This document shows, in pieces, positions 54,456 through 58,229 of a DNA stretch of 64,000 nucleotides; position 1 is the stretch's first letter; each line of letters starts with the position of its first letter. The DNA is from Squalus acanthias. Lineage: Eukaryota. Under the pieces are notes generated by a model, which had not been told where the DNA came from, searched no databases, and worked only from the letters and a program-made list of their open reading frames with translations. The DNA lies in assembly GCA_030390025.1 (NCBI GenBank), contig CM059431.1:101558001-101622000 (forward strand), in the 5' to 3' direction. Position numbers and translations under genes: made by a program.

Positions 54456-54784
54456 CTCAGCAGGTCAGCCAGCATCCGTGGAGAGAGAAGCCGAGTTCAC
54501 GGTTCAGGTCAATGACCTTTCGTCAGAACTCCTTCAATTATAGTTTTAAAATGCTCCGCTACAAATATTTGTAGCTGCTTATTGCAATGAAGGGGTTGCC
54601 TCATTTTGAATCTCTCATTACCCTAATTACGGTGCCAATTATCATATCTTATTATAATACAGATCATAACCTCTGCCCCCATTTTTTCGGACGGTAGCTG
54701 TTCCTAACATTACAACAGTGACCGCACTTCAAGAAGTACTTCATTGACTGTAAAGCGCTTTGGGAGGTCCACAGGTCGTGAAAG

Positions 54785-57700
54785 AACATAGAACATAGAA
54801 CATAGAACAGTACAGCACAGTACAGGCCCTTCGGCCCTCGATGTTGTGCCGAGCATTTTCCGAGACCAAGATCAAGCTATCACACTCTCTATCACTCTGT
54901 TGTGCTGCATGTGCTTATCCAATAATCGCTTGAAAGTTCCTAAAGTGTCCGACTCCACTATCACAGCAGGCAGTCCATTCCACACCCCAACCACTCTCTG
55001 AGTAAAGAATCTACCTCGGACATCCCTTCTATATCTCCCCCCATGCACCTTATAGTTATGCCCCCTTGTAACAGCTGCCTCTACCCGAGGAAATAGTCTC
55101 TGAACATCCACTCTATCTATCCCCCTCATCATCTTATAAACCTCTATTAAGTCGCCTCTCATCCTCCTCCGCTCTAAAGAGAAAAGCCCCAACTCCCTCA
55201 ATCTTTCCTCATAAGACCTCCCCCCCAAACCAGGCAGCATCCTGGTAAATCTCCTTTGCACTCTTTCCAATGCTTCCACGTCCTTCCTATAGTGAGGTGA
55301 CCAGAACTGCACACAATATTCCAAATGTGGTCTCACCAAGGTCCTGTACTGTTGCAGCTTAACCTCACGGTTCTTAAACTCAAACCCTCTGTTAATAAAC
55401 GCCAACACACCATAGGCCTTCTTTACTGCTCTATCCACTTGAGTGGCAACCTTCAGAGATCTGTGGATATGAACCCCCAGATCCCTCTGCTCCTCCACGT
55501 TCCTCAGAACCCTGCCGTTGACCCTGTAATCCTTATTGACATTTGCCCTACCAAAATGAATCACCTCGCACTTATCAGGGTTAAATTCCATCTGCCATTT
55601 TTCGGCCCAGCTCTGCATCCTATCAATGTCTCTTTGCAGCCTACAACTGCCCTCCACCTCATCCACTACTCCACCAATCTTGGTGTCATCAGCAAATTTA
55701 CTGATCCACCCTTCAGTCCCCTCCTCCAAGTCATTGATAAAAATCACAAACAGCAGAGGACCCAGCACCGACCCCTGTGGCACACCGCTGGTAACTGGTC
55801 TCCAGTCCGAAAATGTTCCATCCACCACCACCCTCTGCCTTCTATGAGATAGCCAGTTACTTATCCAATCGGCCAAATTTCCCTCTATCCCACAACTCCT
55901 TACTTTCTTCATGAGACGACCATGGGGAACCTTATCAAACGCCTTACTAAAATCCATGTATACGACATCAACTGCTCTACCTTCATCTACACACTTAGTT
56001 ACCTCCTCAAAGAATTCAATCAAATTTGTTAGGCAAGACTTACCCTTCACGAATCCGTGTTGACTATCCCTGATTAAGTTGCCCCTTTCTAAATGGTCAT
56101 AAATCCTATCCCTCAGGACCTTTTCCATTATCTTACCAACCACCGAAGTAAGACTAACCGGCCTATAATTACCAGGGTCATTCCTATTTCCTTTCTTGAA
56201 GAGAGGAACAACATTCGCCACTCTCCAGTCCTCTGGCACCATTCCCGTGGACAGTGAGGACCCAAAGATCAAAACCAGAGGCTCTGCAATCTCCTCCCTT
56301 GCCTCCCAAAGAATCCTAGGATATATCCCATCTGGCCCAGGGGACTTATCGACCCTCAGGTTCTTCAAAATTGCTAAAACATCTTCCCTCAGAACATCTA
56401 CCACCTCCAGCCTATCCACCTTAATCACACTCTCATCCTCAAAAACATGGCCCCTCTCCTTGGTGAACACTGACGAAAAGTATTCATTCATCACCTCTCC
56501 TATCTCTTCTGACTCCATGCACAAGTTCCCACTACTGTCCTTGACCGGCCCTACCCTCACCCTGGTCATTCTTTTATTTCTCACATAAGAGTAAAAAGCC
56601 TTGGGGTTTTTCTTGATCCGACCCGCCAAGGACTTCTCATGCCCCCTCCTAGCTCTCCTCAGCTCTTTTTTTAGCTCATTCCTTGCTACCTTGTACCCCT
56701 CAATCGACCCAACTGAACCTTGTTTTCTCATCCTTACATACGCTTCCTTTTTCCTCTTGACTAGACATTCAACCTCTTTTGTGAACCATGGTTCTCTCAC
56801 TCGGCCATTTCCTCCCTGCCTGACAGGGACATACCTATCAAGGACACGCAATAATTGCTCCATGAAAAAGCTCCACTTTTCGTTTGTGCCTTTCCCTGAT
56901 AGTTTCTGTTCCCATCTTATACTCCCTAATTCTTGCCTAATCGCATCATAATTACCCCTCCCCCAATTATAAACCCTGCCCTGCCGTATGGCCCTATCCC
57001 TCTCCATTGCAATAGTGAAAGTTACCGAATTGTGGTCACTCTCTCCAAAGTGCTCTCCCACATACAAATCAAACACTTGGCCCGGTTCATTACCCAGTAC
57101 CAAATCCAACGTGGCCCCACCTCTTGTCGGCCTATCCACATATTGTGTCAGGAAACCCTCCTGCACACACTGTGCAAAAACTATCCCATCCGAACTGTTT
57201 GACCTATAAAGGTTCCAATCAATATTTGGAAAGTTGAAGTCACCCATGACAACTACTCTGTGACCTCCACACCTATTCATAATCTGCTTTGCAATTTCTT
57301 CCTCCACATCTTTATTACTATTTGGGGGCCTGTAGAAAACTCCTAACAACGTGACCGCTCCTTTCCTATTCCTTACTTCAGCCCATATTACCTCAGACGG
57401 CAGATCCCCCTCGAACTGCCTTTCTGCCGCTGTTAAACTATCCTTGATTAACAATGCTACTCCTCCACCTTTCTTACCAACTTCCCTACTCTTACTGAAA
57501 CATCTATACCCCGGAACCTCCAACAACCATTCCTGTCCCTGTTCTAACCATGTCTCCGTAATGGCCACCACATCGTAGTCCCAAGTACCAATCCACGCTC
57601 CAAGTTCTCCTACCTTATTCCGGATGCTCCTTGCATTGAAGTAGACACACTTCAAGCCATCTTCCTGTCTGCCGGTACATTCCTGCGACCTTGATACCCT

Positions 57701-57785
57701 CCTCAGTACCTCCCTACACTCACCACTGGCTCGTGGACTACAGCCCTTTTTCCCATCCCCCTGACAAATTAGTTTAAACCCCCCC
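54785..57785 (-). mobile_element. Young 5'-truncated CR1 LINE inserted into a SINE 3' tail
   Basis: (TTCTATG)n-type tail at 54785-54808 on the minus strand. The SINE tail 'gtcgtgaaag|gtgctatagaaatgcaa' is split around it, with gaaag at both 54780-54784 and 57786-57790. Confidence 0.92.
54872..57785 (-). CDS. CR1-clade LINE ORF2 (apurinic endonuclease + reverse transcriptase), uninterrupted frame
   Basis: 927-aa ORF with APE motifs (YFNARS, AITETWL, GDFNFPNIDW, SDHN) and RT motifs (DFSKAFDKVPH, GVPQGSVLGP, FADDTK). The listed start at 57655 is TTG; the frame stays open upstream to the 5' truncation point at about 57785. Confidence 0.95.
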
Positions 57786-58229
57786 GAAAGGTGCTATAGA
57801 AATGCAAATCTTTCTGTTTTTTCTTTTTACTTACAAAGCTTGGTACACATCCCTGGGCATTAAAGAAACCCGCGTGTCGGTGAATACACAAGAACACCAT
57901 CAGATCAACGGATCATAAATTATGTTAATTTCAGATTTAGGACTGCTTTATGTCACTTTGCTAATTTCGTACTGAATGAATAATAACGAATCAAAAATTT
58001 AAAATAAAATTGACGTGAATTGTTACAAACAATAATTGGGACAATATTTTAAAAGCGCATGAATTTTTAACATCCCTTATCTCAACAAAGGAAGTGATAT
58101 TTTGAAATAACAACAGAAAACGCTGGAAAAACTCAGCAGGCCAAGCAGCATCCGTGGAGAGAGAAACAGAGTCAACGTTTCAGGTCGAAGACCTTTCGTC
58201 AGAAGTGATATTTTGACCTCTTCGAGACC

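Follow-up and report, generated by a model that had tools for sequence, protein, structure and literature searches.

In coronaviruses, the slip site between the open reading frames (ORFs) 1a and 1b is the heptamer U_UUA_AAC. In the luteovirus and dianthovirus sites, such as those of barley yellow dwarf virus (BYDV) or the red clover necrotic mosaic virus (RCNMV), the stop codon of the 0 frame directly follows the heptamer and the polymerase is made as a fusion. In the protein-stimulated frameshifting of arteriviruses and cardioviruses the downstream element is located about 11-14 nucleotides (nt) away and a stable fold is not required. For human L1, a long interspersed nuclear element (LINE), unconventional termination/reinitiation and AUG-independent translation of ORF2 have been described. 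According to the accessible part of a 2016 frameshifting review by Atkins and co-workers, the most shifty heptamers on mammalian ribosomes are U_UUA_AAC, G_GGA_AAC, A_AAA_AAC and G_GGU_UUU, sites of the BYDV/RCNMV type employ an adjacent stem-loop which pairs with a site 4 kb downstream, and HeT-A and TART are the sole elements mentioned among those without long terminal repeats (non-LTR) (PMC5009743). Translation of ORF2 is stated to require a -1 frameshift in two LINEs of Dictyostelium, TRE5-A and TRE3-A (PMC5911963), and SART1 is described as using UAAUG coupling, the initiation of LINE ORF2 being called an open question (PMC3894237). Here, a LINE of the CR1 group is analyzed on the minus strand of a 64,000-nt stretch of the Squalus acanthias genome (GenBank assembly GCA_030390025.1, contig CM059431.1, positions 101,558,001 to 101,622,000). 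This whole stretch is denoted as the window, and all positions are given in its coordinates. According to a 2026 survey, elements of this group make up 22-34% of the genome in elasmobranchs, and most vertebrates have them as their dominant retrotransposon (PMC13343379).

A programmed -1 frameshift leading to a minority fusion of the ORF1 and ORF2 proteins (ORF1p and ORF2p) is the best reading of the ORF1/ORF2 junction of this element, and we regard it as probable. A firmer wording is not chosen because the slip itself is inferred and a classical stimulator is missing. The proposal of an earlier note on this DNA, namely that ORF2 may be made as an ORF1-ORF2 fusion by -1 frameshifting, is supported by comparative evidence. 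Ribosomes translating ORF1 would reach U_UUA_AAC, which comprises the last two codons ahead of the stop. The majority would terminate and yield ORF1p, while a minority would slip one base back, so that tRNA-Leu pairs anew with UUU and tRNA-Asn with AAA. The slipped ribosomes would then read CUA and pass through an open linker into the endonuclease. The product expected from this, comparable to retroviral Gag-Pol, would have about 1,270 residues and combine ORF1p with ORF2p.

The junction in the window copy and in full-length copies

Read on the minus strand, the junction displays the order TTTC, GGGGGGG, TTTAAAC, TAA, TTTGTCA, GGGGG. The slippery heptamer U_UUA_AAC (TTTAAAC, 57772..57778) is found, as reported before, immediately ahead of a TAA (57769..57771). 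This TAA is the ORF1 stop abutting the heptamer, which itself has the phase in which full-length copies read ORF1. On the upstream side, a run of seven G's (57779..57785), the length of which varies among copies, is the sole remnant of ORF1 in the window copy (..GG GGG GG of CGG GGG GGT). On the downstream side, a run of five G's (57757..57761) has its first base 10 nt past the heptamer and represents the only downstream feature common to all TTTAAAC lineages described below.

The -1 frame is open and continuous with ORF2, in agreement with the earlier note. From stop to stop it extends over 54872..57793 (973 codons, HLSGG-FKLICQGDGKK...LKCVYFNARS), and the TAG closing it upstream (57796-57794) is sequence of a short interspersed nuclear element (SINE). 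Counted from FKL, ORF2 (54872..57778) comprises 968 codons followed by TGA (54874-54872) and encodes an apurinic/apyrimidinic (AP) endonuclease and a reverse transcriptase, which are recognized by Pfam as PF03372 (Exo_endo_phos, residues 51-254, E 8.7e-22) and PF00078 (RVT_1, residues 535-774, E 5.5e-37). The linker leading from the heptamer to the endonuclease motifs (57641..57771) is open and devoid of Met. The motifs follow in the order YFNARS (residue 51), ITETW (residue 78), first Met (residue 172) and GDFNF (residue 184). The first ATG of the ORF2 frame (57278..57280) is therefore located past YFNARS and ITETW with the catalytic N and E of the endonuclease, and the earlier statement that it comes too late for essential motifs is correct. 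Downstream of ORF2, the 3' untranslated region (54784..54871) carries a terminal (TGTTCTA)n microsatellite tail (54812-54784) and no poly-A.

A bare TTTAAAC is not rare in the window, with 10 occurrences on both strands vs 7.8 expected. What is beyond chance is the phase of the heptamer, its position relative to the ORF1 stop and its conservation, all of which are visible only in related copies. Because of its 5' truncation 4-7 bases before the heptamer, the window copy alone is uninformative with respect to the ORF1 frame. It is a dead relic which is unable to frameshift and merely preserves the signal. The ORF1 frame that had been assumed for the window is borne out by full-length copies ending in GGT TTA AAC TAA, while upstream of 57785 the window contains SINE sequence instead of ORF1.

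A junction query of 231 bases was compared with the 3.7-Gb genome. All 40 junction matches scored, among at least 976 first-look candidates, are 100% identical. In 23 of the 29 other loci fetched, ORF1-type sequence continues for at least 120 nt upstream as one common sequence, and the remaining six are 5'-truncated at six different points. The upstream frame is open over 312-316 codons in eight of the 29 loci, again with GGT TTA AAC TAA at its end. The full-length ORF1 of this family, denoted family A, has 308 residues with the C-terminus ...DGLHLNQRGTNILGGKFATALRGGLN-stop, encoded by CGG GGG GGT TTA AAC TAA. It consists of a Cys-rich N-terminus, a heptad-like region, which by eye may be read as a putative coiled coil, and an SGNH esterase (GDS ... 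GTND ... DGLH). The esterase is matched by Pfam PF13472 (E 3.7e-13) as well as by the zebrafish ZfL2-1 ORF1p (PDB code 4c1b, E 5e-29). Upstream of the heptamer the ORF2 frame of family A remains open for 37 codons without an ATG. An upstream in-frame AUG, the search for which had been suggested, is thus absent from this overlap, save for a Met created by substitution in the single copy L004.

The AP-endonuclease and reverse transcriptase of ORF2, the esterase ORF1, the (TGTTCTA)n tail and the varied 5' truncation identify a CR1-group LINE. Its placement within the group, as canonical CR1 and not L2, Rex1 or Zenon, is tentative and made from these ORF and tail features. For CR1 and L2, no type of ORF1 other than the esterase one is stated to have been identified (PMC13343379).

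Family A is also present in near-identical form in public runs of seven organism codes, with 18 runs holding 0.87-0.92 of the sampled words (L014:1200-1900 as query). Contigs of three organism codes (runs X1, X5 and X9) display 0-1 differences over 395-701 bases of the same query region. Either the host species are close and slowly evolving, or the family has spread recently. No indel or splice joint is found across the junction in the contigs of the three organism codes, bearing in mind that contigs drop rare variants. Such contigs show presence and junction continuity, while expression level, strand and rare slipped forms are outside their reach. A further contig of 189 nt, obtained from a metatranscriptome (X19, depth 4.5), is no proof of transcription.

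Conservation of the heptamer and entry into the ORF2 frame

Other families came to light when less closely related endonuclease and ORF1 proteins served as queries against the genome. In addition, a scan of metagenome contigs with the ORF2 alignment gave 80 loci, three of which (L093, L096 and L141) possess an esterase-type ORF1 end. The end of ORF1 reads GGT TTA AAC TAA in family A (window copy and full-length copies), in family E (...TVGGGLN, eight loci) and in family F (...AVGEGLN, L083 and L085). In family B (...RAVERALN, L031-L060) it is GCT TTA AAC TAA, in family C, represented by the one copy L049, GAT TTA AAC TAA, and in family D (...AVREHLN, L061-L075, L088 and L089) CAT TTA AAC TAG. 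The metagenome contigs L093 and L096 have GCT TTA AAC TAG and TGT TTA AAC TAG, respectively, and L141 has TCT TTT TTA GGA TAA, that is U_UUU_UUA one codon before the stop. A canonical in-phase heptamer is thus located 0-1 codon from the ORF1 stop in all nine esterase-ORF1 lineages whose DNA was read. In all eight TTTAAAC lineages the stop follows directly, as TAA in five and as TAG in three.

Within the families the arrangement is equally well kept. In the family B set, the junction contains TTTAAAC in 27 of 30 loci, namely 26 members of family B and L049 of family C, and the endonuclease N-terminus of family B is about 50% identical to that of family A. In family D the heptamer is found in 12 of 12 loci examined and the endonuclease is in the -1 frame in 11 of these 12. 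ORF2 is in -1 in every family as well as in L093, L096 and L141, the exceptions being single copies with indels (L070, L076, L079, L081 and L091). Full-length relatives with ORF1 in another frame, which the earlier note had named as counter-evidence, were therefore not encountered as a family, and the -1 relation is kept. In L049 the end of ORF1 and the junction resemble those of family F, and the linker and endonuclease those of family B. This copy may represent a lineage which arose by recombination and has gained a stop-restart motif.

Among the codons of these ORF1s, 14 of 109 for Leu are TTA and 22 of 40 for Asn are AAC, and residues of the kinds preceding Leu at the junction have T-ending codons in 26 of 116 cases. 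At the junction, TTA, AAC and NNT are all fixed: the residue before Leu varies (Gly, Ala, Asp, His or Cys), its third base is always T. No synonymous variation in the heptamer, a further point proposed for checking, is observed across the families. This pattern is not what a constraint acting solely on the C-terminus of ORF1p would yield, but it is explained by a constraint on U_UUA_AAC itself. The fixed synonymous bases also bear on the view that the heptamer is kept for some other cause, be it the C-terminus of ORF1p or an RNA or DNA signal, with ORF2 being translated from another RNA or from AUG-bearing variants. The C-terminus does seem to be structurally constrained, as the tail following the last esterase block is exactly 26 residues long in 37 of the 93 homologues described below, and some lineages carry an AUG in the linker. 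A protein constraint, however, cannot fix synonymous bases, in five of the nine lineages no AUG precedes the motifs of the endonuclease, and the contigs of three organism codes contain no splice joint. This explanation is hence considered highly improbable.

Overlapping with U_UUA_AAC, the earlier note had indicated a second slippery sequence, G_GGU_UUA. It is present in the window where, given the seven preceding G's (57785-57779), both heptamers are in phase with GGT TTA AAC TAA. It is not conserved, being found in families A, E and F only and missing from B, C, D, L093 and L096. The G run to which it belongs is a homopolymer of variable length (6 to 16 G) that breaks or fuses the frames in single copies. 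This opens a different route, in which a change of G-run length, either in DNA copies or by polymerase slippage, fuses the frames and only such variants make ORF2p. Runs of six, seven and eight G's occur in copies of families A and E (six in L076), and runs of 11 and 16 in family E (L079 and L081). In L087 one extra G creates an in-frame fusion open over more than 300 residues, and an NCBI model of Hypanus sabinus joins esterase and endonuclease via ...SAARGG-FKLDVQGAG.... Yet B, C, D, L093 and L096 have retained the heptamer without any G run before it, and contigs of three runs contain no indel at the site, although contigs drop rare variants. Such a route is scarcely credible as the regular source of ORF2p. 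The Hypanus sabinus model (P0158, 'hydroxyacid oxidase 2 isoform X1') consists of a CR1 esterase ORF1 joined to the endonuclease and is an annotation artefact mimicking the predicted trans-frame product.

The C-termini of further ORF1 proteins were inspected at the protein level. A full HMMER search with ORF1 against 1.84 billion representatives resulted in 2,671 matches at E<=1e-3, and 93 of the best 150 representatives contain the last esterase block together with a tail of 18-45 residues to the C-terminus. Asn is the last residue in 62 of these 93, preceded by Leu in 45, by Gly in 10 (nine of them Gln-Gly-Asn), by Glu in three and by Lys in one. The earlier statement that CR1 ORF1s commonly end in G/A-L-N-stop is borne out by 45 of 93 homologues ending in LN. 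Species with this ending comprise turtles (Macrochelys and Chelydra), a snake (Erythrolamprus), Anolis, a frog (Ranitomeya) and a sawshark (Pristiophorus), and for 44 of the 45 proteins an NNU codon is possible for the residue before Leu-Asn. The endings LN, QGN and KN would fit in-phase U_UUA_AAC, G_GGA_AAC and A_AAA_AAC, respectively, where for QGN, KN and the amniote LN we infer the heptamer from protein. Several non-conforming tails (...LQGNL, ...SLNC and ...NLNWI) look like read-through of a lost stop. With the turtle ORF1 (P0039) as query, matches were obtained in the genome; a close relative of the QGN-type ORF1 (P0049) was not found in the genome search, the best identity being 40-43%. 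A profile search of genome contigs with the reptile/frog ORF1 alignment gave no match, and amniote junctions are known at the protein level alone. The ORF2 alignment retrieved five distant reverse-transcriptase matches at 25-28% identity from viral contigs.

Entry into the ORF2 frame can be narrowed down from the linker. Up to the first endonuclease motif it measures 38-89 codons, counted from the heptamer, and is too diverged for alignment between families. Summed over the nine lineages (524 codons), no stop is found in the ORF2 frame vs 45 and 60 in the other frames. Upstream of the heptamer, the ORF2 frame is closed by a stop within 0-5 codons in eight of nine lineages, and in L093, L096 and L141 it opens 0-1 codon before the heptamer. 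The open frame thus starts at the heptamer and nowhere else. Five lineages out of nine, namely A, D, E, L096 and L141, lack any Met in the linker. Ribosomes have to gain access to the ORF2 frame no more than a few codons away from the ORF1 stop, and to do so without an AUG.

Downstream of the heptamer, a run of 4-7 G's follows after a spacer of 8-11 nt in all eight TTTAAAC lineages, the spacer being exactly 10 nt in six of them. In the ORF2 frame this run encodes (Q/G/K)-G with the Gly codon always GGG. The Gln codon is CAA rather than CAG in one family, a swap that hints at constraint on the peptide FKLxxQG and thus at translation in the ORF2 frame from the heptamer on. Slippage may be stimulated by the G run or by the adjacent stop. 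In a wider scheme, -1 frameshifting at a heptamer of the most shifty kind, placed against the ORF1 stop, would be the ancestral and general route to ORF2p of vertebrate esterase-ORF1 CR1 LINEs and their relatives in other animals, driven by the G run about 10 nt downstream via a bound factor and not by a pseudoknot. This factor could be ORF1p, with feedback on the ratio of ORF1p to fusion. We regard this scheme in its full extent as doubtful.

As to folded or paired elements, the GGCT/AGCC + CCAC/GTGG pseudoknot considered earlier is confined to family A and unsupported by folding, and a 3-bp hairpin downstream exists in families C, D and F only. No C-rich partner for the G run is present at -300 to +500 nt in most families, the strand being C-poor. 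A G-quadruplex was rejected as a general feature, the four-tract G2 pattern being found in A, E, F and L093 and in none of B, C and D.

Other CR1-like LINEs, the upstream ORF of which has no match to a simple esterase-motif pattern, were also encountered in the metagenome contigs (L098, L102, L106, L117-L121, L125, L137 and L142) and likewise have ORF2 in -1. Among 31 loci with an ORF1 of at least 80 residues near the ORF2 start, ORF2 is in -1 in 25 and in +1 in six. Eleven of the 25 -1 loci carry an A_AAA_AAC of the right phase, and a wrong phase is never seen; at these loci ORF1 continues for 6-140 codons past the heptamer in a Gag-Pol-like overlap.

Several observations weigh against a frameshift. 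The 132 nt after the heptamer fold no better than shuffled sequences (z +0.48), and the minimum-energy folds of seven TTTAAAC lineages (A-F and L093) share no common helix, pseudoknots and long-range pairings having been searched non-exhaustively. Ten of the 25 metagenome LINE loci with ORF2 in -1 are without a canonical in-phase heptamer. At the protein level, 31 of the 93 ORF1 representatives lack a terminal N, including the DGLHP (ZfL2-1-like) group, and one LN-ender, the sawshark protein, ends in EELN, the Glu codon of which cannot end in U. The linker contains Met in family B (codon 17), C (codons 4 and 19), F (codon 45) and L093 (three). The ORF2 relatives P0003 (89% identity) and P0004 (69%) have as their called start a Met located 13-30 residues ahead of the endonuclease, so that AUG-dependent starts are possible for them. 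Finally, the single copy of family C has UAAUG, a known stop-restart motif.

This motif belongs to the main rival explanation, termination-coupled reinitiation or non-AUG initiation in the -1 frame near the ORF1 stop, by which ORF2p would be made as a separate protein as in SART1 and human L1. The direct contact of stop and heptamer in all eight TTTAAAC lineages suits it as well, as do an ATG two codons past the stop in L093, the near-cognate AUU after CUA in families A and B, and the open linker, which is compatible with any start near the stop. UAAUG in SART1 provides a precedent, and the initiation of ORF2 is treated as open in the same review (PMC3894237). The codon after the stop is, however, not conserved as start-like (AUU, AUU, AUG, GUA, ACU, AAG, GGU and GGU), an AUG overlapping the stop in L049 only. 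Furthermore, reinitiation leaves unexplained the fixed last two codons of ORF1 together with the wobble base before them, which form the X_XXY_YYZ heptamer, as well as the occurrence of other classic heptamers in the same phase in other lineages. Reinitiation is thus judged unlikely, and -1 frameshifting at U_UUA_AAC is preferred.

Insertion site and surrounding repeats

The LINE of the window is about 3.0 kb long. Its first base is located 4-7 bases before the heptamer, and it is inserted into a SINE. The 5' part of the interrupted SINE, corresponding to its first ~30 bases, occupies 57786..57815 on the minus strand, as judged by alignment with SINE copies at 59260-59120 and 59960-59830. By the same alignment, the 3' part (54690..54783, minus strand) resumes right after the (TGTTCTA)n tail. 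Comparison of the flanks reveals a target duplication of 4 bp, TTTC, with its right copy at 54780..54783 and its left copy at 57786..57789. The left one could alternatively be microhomology, as full-length LINEs also have TTC before the G run.

Besides the two copies used for the alignment, the same SINE (5' end ...CTTGCATTTCTATAGCGCCTTTC...) is found nearby at ~58700 in reverse orientation. Given several SINE copies close by, the region is a nest of repeats. Another short repeat surrounds the LINE in three copies on the minus strand (58195-58100, 54530-54455 and 54310-54215; ...GACCTGAAACGTTGACTCT..TCTCTCCACGGATGCTGC..CCTGCTGAGT...) and is probably a further SINE or a miniature inverted-repeat transposable element (MITE) family.

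Comparison with known frameshifting and reinitiation systems

If the frameshift is true, ORF1p and ORF2p would be made in a fixed ratio. Cis-preference could then arise in a simple way, as the enzyme would be physically tied to the ORF1p assembly on the RNA encoding it. In that case, ORF2 would be mis-called by annotation pipelines demanding an AUG. The frameshift would also bear on the open question of how LINE ORF2 is translated, for which the known answers, L1 and SART1, give a separate ORF2p. No paper on a slippery site or frameshift at the CR1 ORF1/ORF2 junction was found in the literature searched, and an earlier remark may exist in the original CR1 papers of the 1990s or in Kapitonov and Jurka 2003. 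In the accessible part of the 2026 CR1-group survey the terms frameshift, overlap and start codon are absent (PMC13343379), and neither the esterase structure paper nor the paper on ORF1 of the Jockey superfamily mentions a frameshift at the CR1 junction. The Dictyostelium elements TRE5-A and TRE3-A are similar in being LINEs of the AP-endonuclease type with a -1 frameshift, and differ in LINE lineage and host; CR1 goes unmentioned in the available part of that work (PMC5911963). The junctions compared here would represent a further case of the -1 frameshifting known from retroelements, in the CR1 group of LINEs.

With SART1 and human L1 the CR1 junction shares a bicistronic LINE RNA and the dependence of ORF2 on ribosomes that have translated ORF1. 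Those elements, in contrast, yield a separate ORF2p without a slippery heptamer, and UAAUG is found in just one of the nine CR1 lineages. The BYDV and RCNMV sites are alike in that the stop of the upstream ORF follows the heptamer at once, whereas they use a long-range stem-loop pairing over 4 kb. Arterivirus and cardiovirus sites invite comparison by the distance of their downstream element, the G run of CR1 being located 8-11 nt downstream; it is G-rich, however, and neither C-rich nor a stem-loop, and a factor binding to it would be hypothetical. Compared with retroviral and coronaviral sites, the CR1 junction is without a demonstrable pseudoknot or stable stem 5-9 nt downstream, has the 0-frame stop abutting the heptamer and belongs to a non-LTR retrotransposon. 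At the same time it follows the same phase rule, has an overlapping polymerase ORF in the -1 frame and would be expected to give a minority fusion like retroviral Gag-Pol and coronaviral frameshifting, with a heptamer, U_UUA_AAC, which is the coronaviral one.

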